Made by a program: the position numbers and the translations under genes. From contig JBHLLT010000008.1 of NCBI GenBank assembly GCA_048938855.1, positions 112,908 to 125,344 on the forward strand: 12,437 bases of DNA. The letters run 5' to 3'. Position 1 is the stretch's first letter. The number at the start of each line of letters is the position of its first letter. Origin of the DNA: Promethearchaeota archaeon. Lineage in GTDB: Archaea; Asgardarchaeota; Lokiarchaeia; Sigyniarchaeales; SOKP01. Shown one piece after another: positions 710 to 11,475 of this stretch. The notes under the pieces were generated by a model. That model was not told where the DNA came from. It saw nothing but the letters and a program-made list of their open reading frames with translations, and ran no database searches.

Positions 710-1759
710 TTGGTCGTTGTGTCAGACATTTTTGATGAACCAGTGGAAAAAAACCCTAATGAAGCTTTATGTGTTGTGTATGTACTCTACTTTGATGAAC
801 AAAAGGGACAAATTCCCCTCTTAATGTATCCTGACGATCGACTTCGAAATGATAAAAGATACATGCGCCCTATATATTTTCATCCGGTTTGGTTTTTAGA
901 AACTGCAGACCTTGACCATATAGATTTAGAATATAAAGGGTATACCTTTTTTGGTAAAAAGATCAAAACAACATCAAAAAGACAAAAAAGGAGAGCTGGA
1001 CTTGAGGAAGAAACTCCTGAAACGATAGTTATTATTGTTTCCTTACCTTCTGAATTAGATATCTTTGGTGATGAACTTGTTAAGAAACTGACCAATGAAT
1101 TACGAGATCACTTTGAAAATAAATTATATAAAGTAATAGAAAGCGAAATTGCTTCTGACACAGTAATAAAAACGCAAAAAATTGAAGAAATAATTTTAAA
1201 AGGGACAAAAATCAAGGTTTTTATACGTGAATTAATTGATAAGACTGTTAAGGCTTATTTTTCCAATGTTATAGAAAAAAAGTCAGAATCTCCATCTCTT
1301 AAAACGCAGAAGGCAATTTCTTATTTCTCTCTAAAGGGATTCGAGTTTTCACCTCTCAGTAATTTAAGAGGAGAAAGAGATTTTTCAAACGTTGATTTTT
1401 TTGATGATTCACAAAAAGCTACTGACGAAATTGTTTCAAAGCCTGTCCTCACGATTACTTATCTAAATTTCCTTGAAAATAGTCAAGAAATTGAAATTAC
1501 TATCCAAAATAACACAGAAAAGGAATTAAAGAATATTTCAATTATAATTACTCACGTTAAAGAATTTTTTGAAAAAGAAGTCATGAACCAGGAGATTGAT
1601 TACTGGTTCCCTAAAGAGGAACTCTTATTTATTTCTCCTATTGTTCCTCATATTGACGAATATTTAGTTTGTATCAAGAGGGTAGATGGAAGTGGTGATG
1701 GTCAAAATCTTCTTACCCAAAGGATTGATTTAAACGATATTAATAAAATTACAAGTTAA
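710..1759 (+). CDS. Hypothetical protein with N-terminal uDENN/longin-like domain and C-terminal Ig-like beta-sandwich
   Basis: 349-aa ORF (start TTG 710 or GTG 719). LCVVYVLYFDEQKGQIPLLMYP resembles the beta1-beta2 FDxxxGQ...YP hairpin of uDENN/longin domains; RRAG...ETIVIIVSLP resembles the RG..QKSLVLISKLP segment. The C-terminal IEITIQNNTEKELKNISI is a typical Ig-like strand pattern. The ORF is confident; the domain call is by eye. Confidence 0.6.
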   Translation: MVVVSDIFDEPVEKNPNEALCVVYVLYFDEQKGQIPLLMYPDDRLRNDKRYMRPIYFHPVWFLETADLDHIDLEYKGYTFFGKKIKTTSKRQKRRAGLEEETPETIVIIVSLPSELDIFGDELVKKLTNELRDHFENKLYKVIESEIASDTVIKTQKIEEIILKGTKIKVFIRELIDKTVKAYFSNVIEKKSESPSLKTQKAISYFSLKGFEFSPLSNLRGERDFSNVDFFDDSQKATDEIVSKPVLTITYLNFLENSQEIEITIQNNTEKELKNISIIITHVKEFFEKEVMNQEIDYWFPKEELLFISPIVPHIDEYLVCIKRVDGSGDGQNLLTQRIDLNDINKITS

Positions 1760-1761
1760 AG

Positions 1762-2250
1762 ATGGAAATTATAATGTCAAATGATGAAATAAAAGAAGAA
1801 GATATTATTATCAGAAATTATCGCACGTCAGATTATCAAGCAACTTTAGAAATTTTAAAGGACTTAAATGAAATGTTCGATATTGGTTTTGATGAAAAGC
1901 AATGGAGAGAGTCTTCAGGGTTAAGGCAATTTAAACCAAATCTTAAAAGAATTACTTTAATCGCAGAATTAAAATCTACAGGTCAAGTTGTAAGCATGGG
2001 AATGATTGAAGCAATAAAAAATACCCTTGGAAGATATATTGGTTATTTAGACAACTGGGCCACAAAGAAAGAATTTATCGGAAAAGGTGTAGGTAAACTC
2101 TTAGCAGATAGAGCTACTCAAATCCTTGAATCTTGGGGATGCGATTCTATTCGGATCAACCTAGCTTATAAAACAACTAAGAAATTGGTAGATGTATTTG
2201 GAAAAGCAGGGTTCCATCCAATTATTACAGTACTTGAAAAGAGGTTCTAA
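1762..2250 (+). CDS. GNAT-family N-acetyltransferase
   Basis: IIIRNYRTSDY N-terminus; motif A YLDNWATKKEFIGKGVGKLL (acetyl-CoA-binding GxGxG); GCDSIRINL; C-terminal FGKAGF. Alternative start ATG 1774. Begins 2 nt after the upstream stop. Confidence 0.9.
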   Translation: MEIIMSNDEIKEEDIIIRNYRTSDYQATLEILKDLNEMFDIGFDEKQWRESSGLRQFKPNLKRITLIAELKSTGQVVSMGMIEAIKNTLGRYIGYLDNWATKKEFIGKGVGKLLADRATQILESWGCDSIRINLAYKTTKKLVDVFGKAGFHPIITVLEKRF

Positions 2251-2472: not shown

Positions 2473-2532
2473 GCGTATATTTAGTGTTGTTTAGTGTATT
2501 TAATATTAAACACAATCAAAAGTAGGATTACT

Positions 2533-4521
2533 ATGATAAAGGATGTTATTTCTGAGAATAAAACTCAAGCATTTCTCTTCTCTAATGAGGCAATAGTGAG
2601 AGGGGCCATAGAATCTGATGTTAAAGTAGTAGCATTTTACCCAGGATCACCAGTATCAGAAATTTTAGATACATTTTATCAGATTTCTGATAAGATGGAT
2701 ATTAAAATGGAAATTGCAGCAAATGAAAAAGTAGCGTTAGAGATAATTTCAGGTGCTTCAATGACAGGACAACGTTCATTCACTGCGATGAAGAGTGTAG
2801 GAATGAATGTTGCCTCTGATACTTTTTTTAGTTTAGGGTATACTGGAGTAAATAAAGGGTGTGTGATTGTCTTTGCAGATGACCCCTTTTGCCATTCGTC
2901 TCAAAGTGAAGAAGATGGAAGATTTTTTGGCCAAAATGCCTATATACCATTGTTAGAACCAACAGATCCAGTTGAAGCAAAAGCTATGGTAAAAGCAGCT
3001 TTCGAAATTTCAGAAAAATATAATACTGTTGTCCTAATAAGGACTACTACAAGAATCAACCATCAATCAACAATAGTACCATTAGACCCACTAAATCGAA
3101 CACCATTTACTCGTAATAGTTTTCGAAGCTATAATAAAACCTATTCTACGGTAGGTTCTGTAGCGAGAGAGCTTAAACTCAAAATGTTAGAAAGAACAAA
3201 AAGTATAGAAGCTGAGTTCAACAATTCACCCTTTAATAAATTGGAATCTGGAATTGGTGATATTGGAGTAATAGTTTCTGGGGTGTCTTATAATTATGTG
3301 AAAGAATCTATGAGGAAATTGAAAATTGAACCTCATATTCTAAAAATTGGAACTACATATCCATTACCAAAGGATTTGATAAAAAAATTCCTCACAGACT
3401 TATCAAAAGTTATTATTGTAGAAGAATTAGCACCCTATTTAGAACTAAATGTAAAAGCCTTAGCAAAAGACGCGAATCCTAATTTAATTGTAATAGGAAA
3501 AGAGAGTGGTGATTTTAGTGAGGCTTTTGAATATAATATCCCGATTGTCATGAAAGTTCTAAAAAATGCGTTTAATTTAAACTTGGATTTAAACTATGAC
3601 GATATTTTGAATAATGCCAATCAATTAAAATCTATCTTGCCCCCTAGAATACCCGTGTTTTGTCCTGGTTGTCCTCATAGATCGACTTTTTGGGCATTAC
3701 AAAAGGCTTTAACTGGGAAATCTGATAAAATTGTCTTAATGAATGATATTGGATGTTATTCAATGCTCTTACTTAACAAAAAAATATACTCAAAACTGCA
3801 TGGCGATGATTTATTATTAGCTATGGGTGCTACTTTAGGAGTAAGTAGTGGTGTCTCTTTAGGATCAAACGAAAAAGTTATTTCACTCATTGGAGATAGT
3901 ACATTTTTTCATGCGGGTTTACCTGGAATGATTAATATTTCAAACAATGACGAAAATTTAGTTGTTTTTATTTTAGATAACTCAGTAACCGCTATGACCG
4001 GCCAACAACCTAATCCGGGTACTGGGTATGGACCAGGAGGAAAATCTAAAAATAAAATTCAAATAGAAAATGTCTTAAAGGGTATGGGTTTAAGGAATGT
4101 TCTAATTGTTGACAGTTTTGATACTAAAAAGGCTATTGCTCCTATGAAGAAAGCTTTAGAGGATTCAGGACCAACAGTTATTATTTCTCGCGGTCCCTGT
4201 GCTCTTTGGAATGACCGTAATAAAAGAAAAAGGGGTGAGAAAATACAGCCTTATAGCGTAGATTGGAAAATTTGTAGGAAATGCCATACATGTATGATAG
4301 ACTTTTATTGTCCTGCAATTTCTATGGAATCTACTTTTAAAGAGTATATCGATGATACTGGTAAGAAATTTGAAGGATATTCATCTCATATTAACTCCGA
4401 ATTATGTGATGGGTGTGGAGTGTGTTCAATCATATGTCCTTATACAGATCATGAAAATAGATCTGAAAAAGATGTAATTAAACCATATTATCAGGAGAGG
4501 GAGGTAAAATATGATTTATAA
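2533..4521 (+). CDS. iorA: Indolepyruvate:ferredoxin oxidoreductase alpha subunit
   Basis: NEAIVRG, FYPGSP, ANEKVALE, MKSVGMNVASD, DDP..HSSQSEED, FCPGCPHR, DIGCY, TPP motif IGDSTFFH...DNSVTAMTGQQPNP and a C-terminal 2x[4Fe-4S] domain (CRKCHTC..CP, CDGCGVCSIICP). The ORF track starts at GTG 2494; ATG 2533, preceded by AGGA, is the more likely start. Confidence 0.95.
   Translation: MIKDVISENKTQAFLFSNEAIVRGAIESDVKVVAFYPGSPVSEILDTFYQISDKMDIKMEIAANEKVALEIISGASMTGQRSFTAMKSVGMNVASDTFFSLGYTGVNKGCVIVFADDPFCHSSQSEEDGRFFGQNAYIPLLEPTDPVEAKAMVKAAFEISEKYNTVVLIRTTTRINHQSTIVPLDPLNRTPFTRNSFRSYNKTYSTVGSVARELKLKMLERTKSIEAEFNNSPFNKLESGIGDIGVIVSGVSYNYVKESMRKLKIEPHILKIGTTYPLPKDLIKKFLTDLSKVIIVEELAPYLELNVKALAKDANPNLIVIGKESGDFSEAFEYNIPIVMKVLKNAFNLNLDLNYDDILNNANQLKSILPPRIPVFCPGCPHRSTFWALQKALTGKSDKIVLMNDIGCYSMLLLNKKIYSKLHGDDLLLAMGATLGVSSGVSLGSNEKVISLIGDSTFFHAGLPGMINISNNDENLVVFILDNSVTAMTGQQPNPGTGYGPGGKSKNKIQIENVLKGMGLRNVLIVDSFDTKKAIAPMKKALEDSGPTVIISRGPCALWNDRNKRKRGEKIQPYSVDWKICRKCHTCMIDFYCPAISMESTFKEYIDDTGKKFEGYSSHINSELCDGCGVCSIICPYTDHENRSEKDVIKPYYQEREVKYDL
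4500..4505 (+). promoter_or_regulatory. Shine-Dalgarno sequence for iorB
   Basis: GGAGGT 5 nt upstream of ATG 4511, inside the 3' end of iorA (11-nt gene overlap). Confidence 0.75.
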
Positions 4522-5116
4522 TATAATGACTGGAGGAGTTGGTGGGCAGGGTTTAATGTTAGTCTCAAATATTATAGGTTTGGCTTGTGCTGAATTTAAA
4601 TATAAAATTCGTACAGCAGAGACTCATGGACTTGCTCAAAGATCTGGTTCGATTTATACTCATATACGAATAAGTCAGGATGAAGAGATATTTTCATCTC
4701 TAATTCCTTATGGAGAAGCAGACGTACTGTTATCAATGGAAGCAATAGAAGCACTTAGGAACATAGAATTTTTAAAAAAGGACGGAATTATAATTTTGAA
4801 TAATTATATATGGCATCCTGTTCAAGAAACATTTGAACGAGTTAGAAATGATGAACAGAAATACATTACCATAGAGGAAATTGTTGAAAGATTAAAAATG
4901 ATTACAGATAATATAATAATTATTCGAGCATTAGATTATGCAAATCAAGCTGGTAACGCTCTAACATCTAATGTAGTATTATTAGGGGTTTTAACTAAAT
5001 TAGAGGATTTTCCATTAAGTATTGATAATTTGAAAGAAGTTATTCCTTTAGTAGTTCCAGAGAAAGCCGTTAAGGCTAATATAAAAGCTTTAGAATTAGG
5101 ATATAATTTCACTTAA
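4511..5116 (+). CDS. iorB: Indolepyruvate:ferredoxin oxidoreductase beta subunit
   Basis: GGVGGQG, ETHGLAQRSGS, E.IEALR, NVVLLG, N.KALELG; overlaps iorA. Confidence 0.95.
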   Translation: MIYNIMTGGVGGQGLMLVSNIIGLACAEFKYKIRTAETHGLAQRSGSIYTHIRISQDEEIFSSLIPYGEADVLLSMEAIEALRNIEFLKKDGIIILNNYIWHPVQETFERVRNDEQKYITIEEIVERLKMITDNIIIIRALDYANQAGNALTSNVVLLGVLTKLEDFPLSIDNLKEVIPLVVPEKAVKANIKALELGYNFT

Positions 5117-5120
5117 TTAA

Positions 5121-5129
5121 TTTTTTTTT
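5121..5129 (+). terminator. Oligo-T terminator after iorB
   Basis: T9 run just after the iorB stop, in a 20-nt gap between convergent genes. Confidence 0.55.
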
Positions 5130-5136
5130 AAATGTT

Positions 5137-5619
5137 TCACTTTGTAGAAATCATACTTTTAGGAATCTTTACAGCCAATACTTCACCACGAACACAGACT
5201 TCTCCATTTGCTAGCACATCTACATTTACGATAACCTTTTTCCCTTCAATTTCCTTTACTCTACCAATTAAAACTAGTTCTGTGTTTATTGGTGTGGGTT
5301 TTATATAATCAACGCGAATGGAAGCTGTAACATATCGTAATTCTGGTTCAGTTCCCATATCTCGTCCTTCTGCTGTATAAGCAGCGGCGGCAGCAGTTCC
5401 TGTACCATGGCAATCTATTAATGATGCTATTAATCCACCGTAAACGAAACCTGGAAACGCAGTGTGATATGATTTTGGAGTGAATCTTGCAATACTCTCT
5501 TCACCATTCCAAAAACTTTTGATTTTCATCCCAAATTCATTTAGCCTTCCACAACCATAACAATGACTCATAGGATCAGAATAGTAATCTTGTATTGCTT
5601 TTTTATCCATTATTCTCAC
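5137..5619 (-). CDS. PaaI-family (hotdog-fold) acyl-CoA thioesterase
   Basis: CYGCGRLNEFG N-terminal motif, GFVYGGLIASLID helix, VTASIRVDYIKPTP, GKKVIVNVDV. Start is GTG 5619 or ATG 5610. Confidence 0.9.
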   Translation of the reverse strand: MRIMDKKAIQDYYSDPMSHCYGCGRLNEFGMKIKSFWNGEESIARFTPKSYHTAFPGFVYGGLIASLIDCHGTGTAAAAAYTAEGRDMGTEPELRYVTASIRVDYIKPTPINTELVLIGRVKEIEGKKVIVNVDVLANGEVCVRGEVLAVKIPKSMISTK

Positions 5620-5696
5620 TCTTATTTTTCAAATTATCAATTTTGATATTGATTATGAATTTTGTATTAATAATAATATCAGTTAATTGACCAATT

Positions 5697-7082
5697 TTAA
5701 CTGACTGGTTCAAATCTAGCTTGGAAAAATCTCAAATGTTTCGGTTCAAAAACCATCTTTAATCCGGAGATTGTATCTTTATTTTCATAGAGCCTTATTA
5801 CTGATTCTGCAGTGTATTCCATATGAGTATTAGTGTATACTCTCCTAGGAATTGTTAAACGTACTAATTCTAATGCAGGAAAAATATTTTTTCCAGTATC
5901 TTTATCTCTACCTTTAGAAACTGCACCTCTTTCCATTGTTCTAACAGCAGAATCCTCATAAATAGCTGCTGAAAGTGTTTGTGCTGGCCATTGGTCTCTT
6001 GGAAGGTGAGGCAAGAATTTCAATGCATCTAGAAACACACCGTGACTACCAACAGGTTTTACTATAGGAACCCCAGCTTTATCTAATAATTCTCCTAAAT
6101 ATCGTACTTGATTAATTCGATACTTTAAATATTCATATTGAGCGCCTTCTCGTAAACCTTGAGCAACCGCTTCCATATCTCGACCTGCCATTCCCCCATA
6201 AGTATGGAGACCTTCGAATAATACAACCATTCCTCGAGTATAATCAAATATATCTTTACTATGAGTAGCTAAGAATCCTCCCATATTAACTAAGCAATCT
6301 TTCTTCGCGCTATATATACATCCATCTGAATAACTCATCATCTCCCTGAGAATGTTGACTATAGGTGTATCTTCGTAACCTTCTTCTCGTTCTCTAATGA
6401 AATAAGCGTTTTCGCTTGAACGTGTTGCATCAAAAATGATTTTAAGATTAAATTCATTACAAAATTTTCTTAATTCTCTTAAATTTTTCATTGATACAGG
6501 CTGACCCCCTGCCATATTCACATTCATTTCAACGTTGACAAACGCGATTTTATCGGGACCGTTTTCGTCAATTAGATTTTTCAGTTTATTCAAATCAACA
6601 TCTCCTTTAAAAGGATTCTCATTTTCAGGATCATGTGCATCATCTATTACAACATCAACCATTCTTCCACCTGCTAATTCCACATGAGCTTTTGAGGTTG
6701 TAAAATACATGTTTCGCGGTACTATCTGTCCTGGTTTTGTTAAATGACCATACATTAAATGTTCAGCACCACGTCCCTGATGAGTTGGTACGATATATTC
6801 ATACCCTAATACATCCTGAATTGCTTTTTCAAGTTTGTAGAAACTCCGAGCACCCGCATAAGCTTCATCACCCAACATCATTCTTGACCACTGAACATCT
6901 GACATAGCAGAAGTTCCTGAATCAGTTAATAGATCAATGAAAACATCTTCTGATTTTAATAAAAATGTATTATAACCTGCTTCTTTAATAGCTTCAGTTC
7001 TTCTTTTTTGATCGGGCATTCCAACATGCTCGATCATCTTAATCTTAAAAGGTTCTGGAGGACCATTCATTTTAGAATTCAC
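5697..7082 (-). CDS. tpl: Tyrosine phenol-lyase-like PLP-dependent beta-eliminating lyase (tryptophanase/TPL family)
   Basis: PEPFKIK, IDLLTDSGT, GDEAYAG, THQGRGAE, SAKKD (PLP Lys), VRLTIPRRVYT. Specificity motifs NMYFTT, MERG and LRFF are the TPL type, not tryptophanase (FDTT, EIG, LRHF). Start is GTG 7082 or ATG 7070. Family is certain; substrate is inferred. Confidence 0.8.
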   Translation of the reverse strand: MNSKMNGPPEPFKIKMIEHVGMPDQKRRTEAIKEAGYNTFLLKSEDVFIDLLTDSGTSAMSDVQWSRMMLGDEAYAGARSFYKLEKAIQDVLGYEYIVPTHQGRGAEHLMYGHLTKPGQIVPRNMYFTTSKAHVELAGGRMVDVVIDDAHDPENENPFKGDVDLNKLKNLIDENGPDKIAFVNVEMNVNMAGGQPVSMKNLRELRKFCNEFNLKIIFDATRSSENAYFIREREEGYEDTPIVNILREMMSYSDGCIYSAKKDCLVNMGGFLATHSKDIFDYTRGMVVLFEGLHTYGGMAGRDMEAVAQGLREGAQYEYLKYRINQVRYLGELLDKAGVPIVKPVGSHGVFLDALKFLPHLPRDQWPAQTLSAAIYEDSAVRTMERGAVSKGRDKDTGKNIFPALELVRLTIPRRVYTNTHMEYTAESVIRLYENKDTISGLKMVFEPKHLRFFQARFEPVS

Positions 7083-7564
7083 ATTAATTTATTATTTAAT
7101 ATAAGAATAAAGAATGGTACTTTGAAAAAGTTTTTGGAGATTCTTGCCCATAGTTGTCCCATAAACATTAATTCTCTTTCAAAGTTTTAGAAGTGTGAGA
7201 GAAATAAATTCTCTTAAACGTATTTCCTTTTATTATGTGTTAAGAAAAGAATTTAAATCAATTTTTCACATTTCTTTTCATTTGTCATCTTCAAAAATTT
7301 TTATCTTGTAGTATAGAAAATTAAAAAATTACTAAAAATATACGAGGGAAGAAAAATTAATAATTTGAATTCGTATGAAGAGACCCATAAAGTTAAATTC
7401 TAAGCATTACCATAAAATTTTTTATAAATTAGTCAAAAATGCAAGTGAAGATAATTCTACCATTTAACGATTTTAAGGAAATATATTTATGGTAATACAT
7501 TTAAAATCATATATATCATAATTTTAAAAAGATTATTTAAAATAAAAAAGGGGAAAAATATAAA

Positions 7565-9004
7565 TTGATAGGTATAAAAAGTTATGGAGCTTATTTGCCT
7601 AGGTATCTATTGCCAAGAGAGTTAATCGCAAAGGCTTGGGAATTTCCAATTGTTCCTGGTACAAAAGCTGTTGCTCAGAACGATGAAGATTCCATAACAA
7701 TGAGTGTGGAAGCTGGTTTGGATGCCTTAAGTGGGTTTGATCCTAAAACTATTGATGGATTGTTCTTTGCCTCAACGACTCAAGTATATTCAGAGAAAGA
7801 TTCTGCTTCTTTAATTGCAACTGTATTAGATATGAGACAAGATATTATCACAGCTGACTTTACTGATTCTTTAAAAGCCGGTACAACTGCGGTAGCACGA
7901 GCAGTTGATACAATAAAAGCTAATAAAGATATTAAAAGTATACTTATAGTTGCGGCAGATACGCGAGCTCCGGAACCATCTACCATGTGGGAATATGGAT
8001 ATGCTGATGGTGCGGCTGCGTTGCTTATAGCAGAAGAAGAAAATCTGCCTTTATCTATAGATGATTATTACTCGGTTTCTGCGAATGTTACTGGACCTTG
8101 GAAAAGGGTTGATAAGGACAAATTTATTAGGACTTTTGAAGCCAAGATGGACACTAAATTCTACTTTGATAACATCACAAAAGTTATGGCTGAAATATTA
8201 AAAAGAAACAGTTTGAAACCGGAAGAAATTAGTGCAGCTGCATATTATTATAACAATCCTAGATTACATGGAAAAGTTTCAAAAATAATGAAATTTGCTG
8301 GAGGAGTTGCTCAAAATAGTGTATTCTTTCAACTTGGCGATTTAGGAACACCAATGCCTTTTATTCTTCTAATTGGCGCATTAAGAAGACCCAAACCTGA
8401 AGCAAAGATAATTATGGCGGGATTTGGCGATGGTGCAGATGCAATATTAATGCAAGTTCGCGATAGAGACGCTCTTAGGAATCTTGGAAAGACAAGAATG
8501 GGTCTTTTATCTCATCAAAAATCTATGAAAACTCTGAATAACTACAATAAATTTCTAGACTTCAAAGAAATTCTTGAAAAGGATAGATACAAAAGAAAAA
8601 GTTCTCCTGTAACAATCTGGCGTGATACTGCGTCAATCTATAAGTGGTATGGTGTTAAGTGTAAGAACTGTGGAACAATTCAATATCCCGATATGTTACG
8701 ATCTTGTTATGTTTGTAGAGCAGATGATCAACTTGAACGAGTTAAACTTTCGCTAAAAGGAAAAATATTTACTTATACATTAGATCATTTAGTAGGTGGA
8801 TCTTACTTGGATATACCAGTACCTAGATGTGTGATTGATTTAGATGGTGGAGGAAGAGTACTATTAAACATGACAGAAATTGAAAAACCTGAAGAAAATG
8901 TTCATATTGGTATGGATGTTGAATTAACATTCAGAAAGGAACATGAAGGTGCTGAATTTAAAAATTATTATTGGAAATGTCGACCCGTAAGGGGGAGACC
9001 ATAA
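7565..9004 (+). CDS. Fusion of a non-catalytic HMG-CoA synthase/KAS III-fold domain and a DUF35 (Zn-ribbon + OB-fold) domain
   Basis: N-terminus GIKSYGAYLPRY..DEDSITMSVEA..DGAAALLI..GFGDGADA is HMGCS-like. C-terminus KCKNCG..CYVC, GKIFTYT, DLDGGGR, IGMDVELTFRK, YYWKCRP is DUF35. TTG start with a purine-rich upstream run. Confidence 0.9.
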   Translation: MIGIKSYGAYLPRYLLPRELIAKAWEFPIVPGTKAVAQNDEDSITMSVEAGLDALSGFDPKTIDGLFFASTTQVYSEKDSASLIATVLDMRQDIITADFTDSLKAGTTAVARAVDTIKANKDIKSILIVAADTRAPEPSTMWEYGYADGAAALLIAEEENLPLSIDDYYSVSANVTGPWKRVDKDKFIRTFEAKMDTKFYFDNITKVMAEILKRNSLKPEEISAAAYYYNNPRLHGKVSKIMKFAGGVAQNSVFFQLGDLGTPMPFILLIGALRRPKPEAKIIMAGFGDGADAILMQVRDRDALRNLGKTRMGLLSHQKSMKTLNNYNKFLDFKEILEKDRYKRKSSPVTIWRDTASIYKWYGVKCKNCGTIQYPDMLRSCYVCRADDQLERVKLSLKGKIFTYTLDHLVGGSYLDIPVPRCVIDLDGGGRVLLNMTEIEKPEENVHIGMDVELTFRKEHEGAEFKNYYWKCRPVRGRP

Positions 9005-9011
9005 AGGAGGT
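9005..9011 (+). promoter_or_regulatory. Shine-Dalgarno sequence for thiolase
   Basis: AGGAGGT 9 nt upstream of ATG 9021, in the 16-nt intergenic gap. Confidence 0.8.
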
Positions 9012-9020
9012 TGATAAAAA

Positions 9021-10208
9021 ATGGGAAGAAAAGGAATAAAAGATAAAGTGGCGATTATTGGATGTGATATGACAAAATATGGGGAGCGTTGGGATAAAAA
9101 TCAATACGATTTATTGTTTGAAGCAGTTCAAAGCGCGACAAAAGATGCAGGAATTACTAAAGATGATATTGATGCTACTTGGGTTGGAATATTCTACTAC
9201 TTCACCGGACTATCTGGAGCCGTAACTGAAGATATTTTAAGACTTGATGGAAAACCAGCTACAAGGGTTGAAAATTTTTGTGCTAGTGGAATGGATGCTT
9301 TTAGAAATGCTTCATTTGCTATAGCATCGGGAGCTTATGATATTGTCCTTGCTTGCGGTGTAGAAAAGTTGATGGATGAAGGAGGAAGCGGTCTTCCAGG
9401 ATTTACGATTTTTGGTCATCCTTTATATCCAACTCCTTCTGCTCCAGCAATGTTTTCTATGGCTGCAACAAGAAGTTTTCATGAATACGGTTGGACTAAA
9501 GAAGATTTAGCAAGAGTAGCGGTTAAAAATCATGATAATGGTGCTGATCATCCAAAAGCTCATTTTAGGAGCAGAATAACGATTGATCAAGCTATGAAAG
9601 CACCGATGATTGCTGATCCACTTGGACGTTTTGATTGTTGTGCTATGAGTGATGGCGCTGCTGCTCTTATTTTAACGAGACCAGAATTAGCTGAAAGTTA
9701 TGCTCATGCAGATGATTATGTCTTGGTCAAAGCTAATGCTATTTCATGTAGGACTAACTTTCCATGGTATATACCACCTAACGGTCCTGGAGCAGATTTC
9801 ACTAGTTTCCCAGCAACTGTTAAAGCTGCCGAATATGCCTATAAAGAAGCGGGTATTACAAATCCTCGAAAAGAAATTGATGCTGCTGAAGTTCACGACT
9901 GTTTCACAATTACAGAATTAATAAACTGCCAAGATTTACAATTCTGCGATCGTGGTCAAGCCGCTGAAGAATTAAAAAATGGTACTTTTAATTGGGATGG
10001 AGAAACTGCGGTAAATCCTTCTGGTGGATTAAAATCATTTGGTCACCCAATAGGATCTACTGGTTGTAGAATGTTAACAGAAATTACAAAACAACTTCAA
10101 GGGAGAGCAGAAGGACGACAAGTTCCAGATGCTAAGATTGGACTCTGTCATAACTTAGGTGGAGCTTTTAGTGTTTGTTCTACCACGATTTTAAGTCAAA
10201 GAGGATAA
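9021..10208 (+). CDS. Thiolase (acetyl-CoA acetyltransferase), SCP2/archaeal type
   Basis: VENFCASG (nucleophile Cys87), GVEK, AVKNH, SDGAAA, EVHDCFT, NPSGGLKSFGHPIGSTG, HNLGG. Confidence 0.95.
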   Translation: MGRKGIKDKVAIIGCDMTKYGERWDKNQYDLLFEAVQSATKDAGITKDDIDATWVGIFYYFTGLSGAVTEDILRLDGKPATRVENFCASGMDAFRNASFAIASGAYDIVLACGVEKLMDEGGSGLPGFTIFGHPLYPTPSAPAMFSMAATRSFHEYGWTKEDLARVAVKNHDNGADHPKAHFRSRITIDQAMKAPMIADPLGRFDCCAMSDGAAALILTRPELAESYAHADDYVLVKANAISCRTNFPWYIPPNGPGADFTSFPATVKAAEYAYKEAGITNPRKEIDAAEVHDCFTITELINCQDLQFCDRGQAAEELKNGTFNWDGETAVNPSGGLKSFGHPIGSTGCRMLTEITKQLQGRAEGRQVPDAKIGLCHNLGGAFSVCSTTILSQRG

Positions 10209-10209
10209 C

Positions 10210-10246
10210 TTTTTGATTTTTCTTTTTTTTTCTTTTGTTTTTATTT
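10210..10246 (+). terminator. Long oligo-T terminator of the fusion/thiolase operon
   Basis: TTTTTGATTTTTCTTTTTTTTTCTTTTGTTTTTATTT directly after the thiolase stop. Confidence 0.75.
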
Positions 10247-10332
10247 AAAATCTTTAAATCTAGTTTGTCGATTAGACAGAATAGATCTGTACAGAATAAT
10301 TTCTACATCTAAATTCAAATGTTTAAATTAAT

Positions 10333-10341
10333 AAAAAAAAA
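10333..10341 (-). terminator. Oligo-T terminator after mscL
   Basis: A9 on + (T9 on -) about 20 nt downstream of the mscL stop. Confidence 0.5.
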
Positions 10342-10360
10342 TTTTTGATAGAAAAATAAA

Positions 10361-10735
10361 CTATTCTATTCCTACTTTAGCAGCATATTTTACTATTATG
10401 AAGATTATAAATGCTATAATTATAAAGTTAAGGAATGCTGCTATAAAATTACCGATTCCAAACACACCTAACTTAATACTACTGATATCTTCAAAGCCAG
10501 GAACGAAAATGCCAATAATGGGTGTTATAATATCTTGTGCTAATGATAGAATCAAAGCATTGACAGCTAAGCCTATAATAAATGCCGCTGCCAGTCCAAG
10601 AATTTTATATTTTTTTATAAACTGTAAAAATTCTGCGGCAAGATTTTTTGGTTTCTTTGGTTCTGGTTCTGGTTTTGGAGTTAATAATTCACGAATTTTC
10701 CTTAATTCTTCTAACAATTCATTTTCTTTTGACAT
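10361..10735 (-). CDS. mscL: Large-conductance mechanosensitive channel MscL (archaeal type, atypical topology)
   Basis: S1 helix EFLQFIKKY, TM1 LGLAAAFIIGLAVNALILSLAQDIITPII, TM2 GNFIAAFLNFIIIAFIIFIIVK. ATG 10735 (MSKENELL) is preferred over the 10786 start in the track, whose extension looks like intergenic A/T runs. Confidence 0.92.
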   Translation of the reverse strand: MSKENELLEELRKIRELLTPKPEPEPKKPKNLAAEFLQFIKKYKILGLAAAFIIGLAVNALILSLAQDIITPIIGIFVPGFEDISSIKLGVFGIGNFIAAFLNFIIIAFIIFIIVKYAAKVGIE

Positions 10736-10839
10736 TGTTTTCTCTCTCAATTTTTTTTTAAAAAAGTGTAAAAAATTAGAGTTCAAAAGTATATAAAACT
10801 TATCATAATTTTTTAGAAAGAATATATTAAATACATTCT

Positions 10840-11475
10840 TTAAATGAACAAATCCATGATATCATATAATTCAATTAATTTCTCAACTGTAAGGTTAGCT
10901 TCAGCTTTTAAATCATCTAATGATTTACCAATCAAAATTCTCTGTTCTTTCCAGAAAAGGGTATAAATTAATCCAAGATACTTTCCGTAAACCAAGATAC
11001 CCCCTTCAAAATCAGAATTTTTATCAATAGTTAATGCTCCAAATGTATTTTCTTCATCATAATCAGTTAAAAACTCTATTAAAGAACTATAAAATTTAGA
11101 ACTTAAAAAAGATCTGTCAGAAACACTAGCAACTTTATGTTCAAATCCTCTTCCTGCTCTCCGAGGTACTTTTAAATGATAAAATCTTATATCATCCTTT
11201 AACTCATTTATTCGATTTCGTGCAGTTTCAAGTAATTGCTCATTTAGAGAAATTTCTTCCTCATCTCCAATGTCATCTATTTTTTGAGAGCCTCTATGTT
11301 TACCATTGTTATCAATAAATGCGATAAAAGGAGGACAGCTTGAATTATCTGAATGATTTTTTATTAATACCGTGAAAAGACCACTTTTTTTCTCATAATC
11401 TATTTGCTTTCTGAAACTTTCTTTACAATACGGACAAATCATATTGATTAATGCTGAATCTTCAGTAAAAGTCAT
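10840..11475 (-). CDS. Hypothetical protein with N-terminal putative Zn-binding domain
   Basis: 211-aa ORF; CPYC...GLFTVLIKNH..CPPFIAFIDNNGKHRGSQKID N-terminal module, acidic linker, alpha/beta C-terminal domain. Confidence 0.75.
   Translation of the reverse strand: MTFTEDSALINMICPYCKESFRKQIDYEKKSGLFTVLIKNHSDNSSCPPFIAFIDNNGKHRGSQKIDDIGDEEEISLNEQLLETARNRINELKDDIRFYHLKVPRRAGRGFEHKVASVSDRSFLSSKFYSSLIEFLTDYDEENTFGALTIDKNSDFEGGILVYGKYLGLIYTLFWKEQRILIGKSLDDLKAEANLTVEKLIELYDIMDLFI

Follow-up and report, generated by a model that had tools for sequence, protein, structure and literature searches.

The window analysed here, a stretch of 12,437 nucleotides from a Promethearchaeota archaeon genome, carries near its beginning a gene for a protein in which an N-terminal longin domain is followed by an Ig-like domain. 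We refer to this protein as longin-Ig and count its residues from GTG 719. The features of the window are as follows.

719-1759, plus strand: longin-Ig gene, 346 aa from GTG 719, with TTG 710 as a possible longer start
764-1282, plus strand: longin domain, residues 16-188, beta1-beta2-alphaA-beta3-beta4-beta5-alphaB-alphaC, AF2 pLDDT mostly 76-96
770-832, plus strand: beta1-beta2 hairpin FDExxG[H/Q]xPxxxYP, G30 in 79/83 members, with G-H/Q in place of the GP of GAP longins
881-892, plus strand: HxxW motif closing helix alphaA, H55 in 81/83 and W58 in 81/83
974-1000, plus strand: basic beta4-beta5 loop S86-x-R88-x-K90-x-R92-x-G94, with R92 (992-994), or R88/K90, as candidate arginine finger
1298-1333, plus strand: extra helix past the longin domain, residues 194-205, with a QKA motif
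1349-1435, plus strand: variable linker, residues 211-239, pLDDT <50 (low confidence)
1436-1747, plus strand: seven-strand Ig-like domain, residues 240-343, with N264, an F-F-E hairpin (1565-1573) and W296 conserved, pLDDT ~90
1762-2250, plus strand: GNAT acetyltransferase, starting 2 nt past the longin-Ig stop
2494-10786: indolepyruvate oxidoreductase alpha/beta, thioesterase, tryptophanase-like lyase, HMG-CoA-synthase-like/DUF35 fusion with thiolase, and MscL, named mostly by sequence appearance, MscL being Pfam-confirmed
10840-11475, minus strand: 211-aa protein whose N-terminus has a CPxC motif resembling a zinc finger; Pfam gave no family above cut-off

The open reading frame at 710/719-1759 (plus strand) is a genuine gene rather than a chance frame, since 418 homologues were retrieved at E<=0.001 and most differences from relatives affect the third base of a codon (105 of the 153 differences from L036). 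GTG 719 is probably the start, because a start codon is kept at this position in 25 of 25 homologous loci and the homologues are mostly 344-347 aa long; the codon 9 nt upstream is a non-start in 7 of the same 25 loci. The N-terminal motif quoted in the original prediction is indeed the translation of positions 770-832, and YTFFGKK, KRRAG and TIVIIVSLP are all found in the translation as well. Searches of Pfam, NCBIfam and PDB sequences with the protein and its alignment returned nothing, and a scan for sigma-70 promoters, a model ill-suited to archaea, remained near chance. The family was found in Asgard archaea only and is not broadly bacterial. A profile search of 1.84 billion representatives yielded just 99 proteins, of which the named ones sampled were all Asgard; named homologues carry Promethearchaeota and other Asgard labels, and the source names on longin-Ig and cluster proteins include Helarchaeota, Jordarchaeales, Freyarchaeota and Hodarchaeales. 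The lone bacterial label, on a 'Candidatus Deferrimicrobium sp.' contig (L092), accompanies a Lokiarchaeia gene order, and this record is probably mislabelled.

An AlphaFold (AF2) model of longin-Ig, built on 54 sequences with a mean pLDDT of 82.5, contains the five-stranded antiparallel sheet by which longins are recognised, in the strand and helix order given above, and thereby bears out the longin fold proposed for the N-terminal domain. About 20 longin chains match residues 16-188 at Z 7.9-10.5, among them NPRL2 (Z 10.5, rmsd 3.2, 134 aligned), folliculin (Z 10.4, rmsd 3.3, 144 aligned), Sec22b (Z 10.4, rmsd 3.1, 123 aligned) and VAMP7 (Z 9.9), with the longins of Mon1-Ccz1, BLOC-3 and TRAPP also in the list (Z 7.9-8.9). 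In the model the longin fold is thus settled but not the subfamily, as NPRL2, folliculin, Sec22b and VAMP7 are tied in Z. Shape matches in the Atlas were to clusters of the Npr2/folliculin type, with TM <0.5 over the whole chain, and one matched cluster had 16% Avl9 members; a Foldseek search with the two-domain model returned chiefly partial Ig matches and carries no weight. The helices of the proposed 'helical middle region' (residues 111-188) are present in the model, but they do not make a separate domain, being the last two, C-terminal helices of the longin domain itself.

The resemblance to DENN proteins of the DENND6/AVL9 type, from which the original prediction had started, did not hold beyond the N-terminus. 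Longin-Ig has the opening FDxxxGQ...YP pattern and the longin fold in common with the DENND6/AVL9 uDENN domain, but the model contains no cDENN/dDENN lobes: past the longin domain there are only one helix, the linker and the all-beta sandwich, and 346 aa leave no room for an alpha/beta cDENN lobe. None of the 54 longin-Ig members had a Pfam DENN match, nor was there a Pfam uDENN or Avl9 match. DENND6, AVL9 and adaptin-ear chains were absent among the fold matches listed, though they may occur outside that list.

Residue conservation was counted in 83 non-redundant longin-Ig members (<70% identity). The residue following G30 is His in 53, Leu in 11, Asn in 5, Ile in 5 and Gln in 3 members, and the GP motif expected before beta2 of a GAP longin is lacking, proline not being among the common residues there. 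The basic beta4-beta5 loop is well kept (R88 in 60, K90 in 60, R92 in 56 and G94 in 57 of the 83), and about 70% of the members carry the whole S86-to-G94 pattern, the remainder being mostly second copies. The tandem paralogues of family f16 (311-330 aa) have lost the basic loop, and in another genus of the own family (L096, L106, L165) one copy of the tandem longin-Ig duplicates has a degenerate loop. Loop-less tandem paralogues occur in f16 and in some genera of f1, and the own genome has a single copy; the HxxW motif is retained in main copies and loop-less paralogues alike. Eukaryotic longin GAPs form catalytic/non-catalytic pairs, which the retention and loss of the loop arginine in longin-Ig copies resembles. 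The ARG motif of folliculin, which is its arginine finger, also maps to the beta4-beta5 loop, where the profile of the Asgard FLCN-like family aligns to folliculin. The arginine register relative to folliculin is not fixed, because the longin-Ig loop is ~7 residues longer and an hhalign comparison with the Asgard FLCN-like family was not significant (probability 1.7%).

That FLCN-like longin family has already been published (PMC12290439), and its FLCN/SMCR8-type members have the FDxxxG hairpin and a loop arginine in common with longin-Ig. They nevertheless form a family of their own, in which GP and RG are invariant, whereas longin-Ig is devoid of GP, by which GAP longins are recognised in eukaryotes and Asgard archaea alike (PMC12290439). 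The Asgard FLCN-like profile matched human folliculin (E 4e-4) and three other ORFs of the own genome, and longin-Ig was not matched.

The predicted all-beta C-terminus was recovered in the AF2 model as a seven-strand Ig-like sandwich. Its fold matches (Z 8-10.5) include many unrelated proteins, namely WxLIP (10.5), beta-galactosidase (9.8), PDE-delta (9.6), the Fanconi core (9.5) and BBS1 of the BBSome (8.4), and since unrelated Ig domains match equally, the sandwich cannot be named an adaptin ear. Assessed within the two-domain model, the Ig domain had no Pfam match, and adaptor-type sandwiches were tied with glycosidase Ig domains (Z 8.4-10.5). More informative was its occurrence elsewhere. 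The family profile matched two further genes on the same contig through their C-terminal Ig domain, one FrhB-like and the other arrestin-like, and a profile from the FrhB tails alone led back to longin-Ig at E 4e-19. Exactly three ORFs of the own genome carry the domain (longin-Ig, FrhB-like and arrestin-like), and the three proteins have the N, the F/L-F-E hairpin and the W in common. The genes with this domain outside the window are as follows.

L034:12999-14492 (G000 C20 ~73.0-74.5 kb), minus strand: FrhB-like protein carrying an Ig tail as well as two ferredoxin clusters, its gene lying between a HEAT-repeat gene and Rag
L034:7952-9169, minus strand: arrestin/Vps26-fold protein with an Ig tail, four invariant cysteines, possible metal site
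L164:9944-11674, family f16: GltD/NfnB-like flavoprotein with the same Ig domain, its gene oriented towards the longin pair
L161:8444-10027 (genome G004): FrhB-Ig gene; longin and Rag were both not found in this genome

The FrhB-like Fe-S flavoprotein (Pfam FrhB N and C) is encoded directly upstream of a Rag GTPase. The arrestin-Ig gene in L034 is convergent with two Rab/Arf-like GTPases, and the AF2 model of its product (pLDDT 81) matches Vps26 (Z 14.8, rmsd 4.0, 243 aligned), Spo0M (14.8) and Rgp1 (13.9). The GltD/NfnB-like protein is a second, independent Ig fusion to a redox enzyme. In another genome (G117, L146:1572-6864), four tandem paralogues of ~425 aa lie directly downstream of the arrestin-Ig gene.

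The GTPase next to the FrhB-like gene (G000 C20:72014-72919) is a RagA-like GTPase-roadblock protein and the candidate partner of longin-Ig. It is closest to RagA/Gtr1 (E 3e-21, versus 4e-13 for RagC and 9e-10 for the Arf family), has the Rag-type HKxD motif and an invariant DxGGQ glutamine (Q58), and is separated from its paralogues by a wide margin (E 1e-168 versus 1e-28); its C-terminal extension is a putative roadblock, as read from the sequence pattern. The longin-Ig gene lies <=9 kb from this Rag in 29 of the 33 other-family Asgard genomes having Rag, which upholds the suggested link to small GTPases. The cluster neighbours in other families are usually CBS, FrhB-like and arrestin/Vps26-fold genes, and several families show the typical same-strand order CBS - longin-Ig - (insert) - FrhB-Ig - GTPase - arrestin-Ig. 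In some families the cluster is rearranged or the arrestin gene is not nearby, and in some Helarchaeota-labelled members CBS domains are fused to longin-Ig. Across 80 genomes, the longin-Ig family profile and Rag matched the same nine families; both were missing from the sister family f3 (same order, single-contig genomes) and 14 further families, and family f9 gave an Ig-domain match only. At the level of single genomes, G158, from the own family, lacks all cluster parts. G191 (97% complete) has longin, with Rag, FrhB-Ig and arrestin-Ig not found, and G209 is its reverse, with no longin and the other three found; G279 has no longin, but this genome is 63% complete. These co-location and distribution counts come from related genomes, which are not independent, and from profiles built on cluster-bearing genomes.

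Two readings other than that of a Rag regulator may be considered here. The original prediction had envisaged a subunit of a coat, an adaptor or a tethering complex acting in membrane trafficking, a uDENN domain with an adaptin-ear-like appendage. A longin domain together with a sandwich is known in adaptins, TRAPP and the BBSome; BBS1 and the Fanconi-core sandwich are in the Ig match list, the cluster has a Vps26-fold neighbour, and a HEAT-repeat gene lies upstream of FrhB-Ig in the own genome. Those Ig matches, however, are level with those to beta-galactosidase and further unrelated Ig domains, no adaptor sandwich being matched above glycosidase Ig, the same Ig domain is found on redox enzymes, and the partner GTPase is of the Rag type and not Arf or Rab. 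We therefore regard a trafficking subunit as highly improbable, and because the gene context consists of a Rag-type GTPase with redox and CBS proteins, we favour a GATOR1/folliculin-like signalling role over vesicle trafficking. Alternatively, the Ig domain might be the functional core that assembles a redox-enzyme complex, with the longin as a ligand-sensing or structural subunit instead of a GTPase regulator. Its fusion to two unrelated flavoproteins, FrhB-like and GltD/NfnB-like, would fit such a complex, as would the frequent adjacency of the clusters to Hdr/FrhB-type genes and the genome G004, in which FrhB-Ig is found and longin and Rag are not. Yet the most conserved residues of the family lie in the longin domain, and Rag is the most constant neighbour of longin-Ig in the cluster, which makes a redox-assembly role very unlikely in our judgement.

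We thus consider it probable that longin-Ig and Rag form a regulatory partnership of some kind, and, at slightly less than an even chance, that longin-Ig is a GAP-like regulator of the C20 RagA-like GTPase. A complex of two longin domains with the Rag G domain and GTP/Mg was modelled with the own genome's pair, and obtained a score of 0.57, while the best control scored 0.00; none of the control partners was one of the ~60 small-GTPase-like ORFs of the own genome. The runs agree in >=85% of contacts, with a partner pLDDT >=84. Of 80 solved complexes, 58 reach the mark applied to such models, as do 2 of 110 mismatches; those reaching it at <=0.60 comprise only 7 solved complexes and both mismatches. 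The model hence lends weak support to the binding of Rag by a longin dimer, and its pass may reflect likeness to the solved GATOR1-Rag and FLCN-Rag complexes; it moves our estimate only a little, because the pairing was already likely from gene context. As to the proposed complexes with the genome's small GTPases, one GTPase, the C20 Rag, was modelled, and this weak pass is what came of it.

A GAP is not the only partner that Rag could have in longin-Ig. It may bind Rag as an exchange factor, effector or scaffold, the basic loop contacting membrane or switch regions in a non-catalytic way. Most longin dimers, such as those of Mon1-Ccz1, TRAPP and DENN, act as exchange factor, effector or scaffold, and the Mon1-Ccz1, BLOC-3 and TRAPP longins are among the fold matches given above. 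Rgp1, a GEF component, is among the proteins that the arrestin neighbour resembles, and the context evidence fits equally well. The GP motif that PMC12290439 ties to GAP longins is moreover absent, and longin-Ig is not a longin GAP by the definition of that work, although it may still operate in a longin GAP-like manner. Against a non-catalytic loop, members sharing only 17-35% identity retain three basic residues, at intervals, together with a glycine, and paralogues lose all four together; this conservation and joint loss suggests a precise role of the loop rather than one of bulk charge. On balance, an exchange factor, effector or scaffold appears unlikely to us.

The own family departs from the arrangement of the other families. 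Here the longin-Ig gene is 40 kb from Rag (28-55 kb in several relatives), the Rag cluster never comes within 6 kb of longin-Ig in 80 own-family loci, and the neighbour is instead the GNAT gene (Pfam Acetyltransf_1, E 8.5e-08), which comes directly after longin-Ig in 79 of the 80 loci and is a fixed neighbour in the own family only. The link to Rag might be ancestral and lost in the own family, the protein working with another GTPase or with the GNAT, whose substrate, partner or sensor it would be. The close GNAT pairing, the distance of the Rag cluster and the longin without Rag in G191 could be read in this way, and so could a different Rag-like GTPase gene that comes right after the longin-GNAT pair, in most cases in opposite orientation. 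That gene occurs in 6 of the 80 loci only (L043, L046, L048, L055, L076, L114), and a specific link to it was dismissed. On the other hand, the loop, HxxW and Ig motifs are unaltered in the own family, Rag is found in 19 of 24 genomes of the own genus while G158 is without both, and the weak complex pass came from the own genome's pair, so that a lost partnership seems quite unlikely. It is a speculation that the GNAT modifies the lysine-rich beta4-beta5 loop. Further along the window, the HMG-CoA-synthase-like/thiolase pair is found near the longin-Ig gene in ~50 of 80 own-family loci.

Returning to the GAP-like reading, the association of longin-Ig and Rag with a flavoprotein and an arrestin-like protein suggests an archaeal metabolism-sensing switch. 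In its fullest form, which we consider doubtful as a whole, this would be an Asgard 'proto-GATOR' in which a new type of longin GAP, without GP and with a long basic loop, controls Rag, an F420/FAD-type Fe-S flavoprotein and CBS domains wire it to metabolism, an arrestin/Vps26-fold protein serves as effector, and a private Ig docking domain joins three of the subunits. For the GAP-like reading itself, two longin domains would pair as a platform, a homodimer in the own genome and a heterodimer with the loop-less paralogue where present, after the manner of NPRL2-NPRL3 and FLCN-FNIP. The Rag G domain would dock on this dimer, where the beta4-beta5 arginine (R92, or R88) and the DxGGQ glutamine of Rag might together stimulate GTP hydrolysis. 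The weakest steps are the last two, in which the flexibly tethered Ig domain would dock longin-Ig with the FrhB-like Fe-S flavoprotein and the arrestin/Vps26-fold protein, and metabolic input would come from the redox state of the flavoprotein and from the adjacent or fused CBS domains.

The comparison with known systems cuts both ways. NPRL2-NPRL3 (GATOR1/SEACIT, the GAP for RagA/Gtr1) resemble longin-Ig in the longin fold, the conserved beta4-beta5 arginines, the RagA-like nature of the putative partner and, in some lineages, a loop-less paralogue. Unlike NPRL2, longin-Ig has no GP, a longer loop and only ~9% identity, carries an Ig domain in place of the TINI/winged-helix lobes of NPRL2-NPRL3, shows no DEPDC5 equivalent and is a single copy in the own genome. 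Folliculin-FNIP and C9orf72-SMCR8 likewise have the longin fold and an arginine-glycine-type motif in the same loop, whereas longin-Ig lacks the C-terminal DENN lobe of the folliculin and SMCR8 GAPs, has R-x-G instead of A-R-G, and again no GP.

Longins, Rags and FLCN-like longins are already known in Asgard archaea, and the longin fold alone is unsurprising; the value of the present locus lies in the longin-Rag pairing and the shared Ig domain. In the accessible passages of bioRxiv 10.1101/2020.10.19.343400, an Asgard operon of roadblock, Rab-like GTPase and DENN genes similarly places a longin-family regulator with a small GTPase, with NPRL2-like longins described there as fusions to two-component domains; the same passages make no mention of Rag, FrhB and arrestin with a shared Ig. 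In openly accessible articles, searched without their family-level supplementary tables, no published description of the longin-Ig family or cluster was found. It has been asked which GTPases are the targets of the Asgard longins (PMC12290439), and Asgard GTPases are hard to match with GAPs and GEFs from genome layout, being rarely in operons (PMC10933270). The cluster described here names a specific, small and soluble longin-Rag pair that is assayable, and suggests what the Rag switch sensed before TOR and lysosomes, namely redox and adenylate state.

Finally, the own genome also contains three folliculin-like GP/ARG longins (G000 C13:16165-17223, C41:91030-92133 and C41:93751-94854). A search of this genome with Pfam Folliculin found nothing, and one with Pfam NPR2, which matched nowhere and so carries no weight, did not either; the three genes missed by Pfam Folliculin are matched by the Asgard profile at E ~1e-12 to 1e-14.
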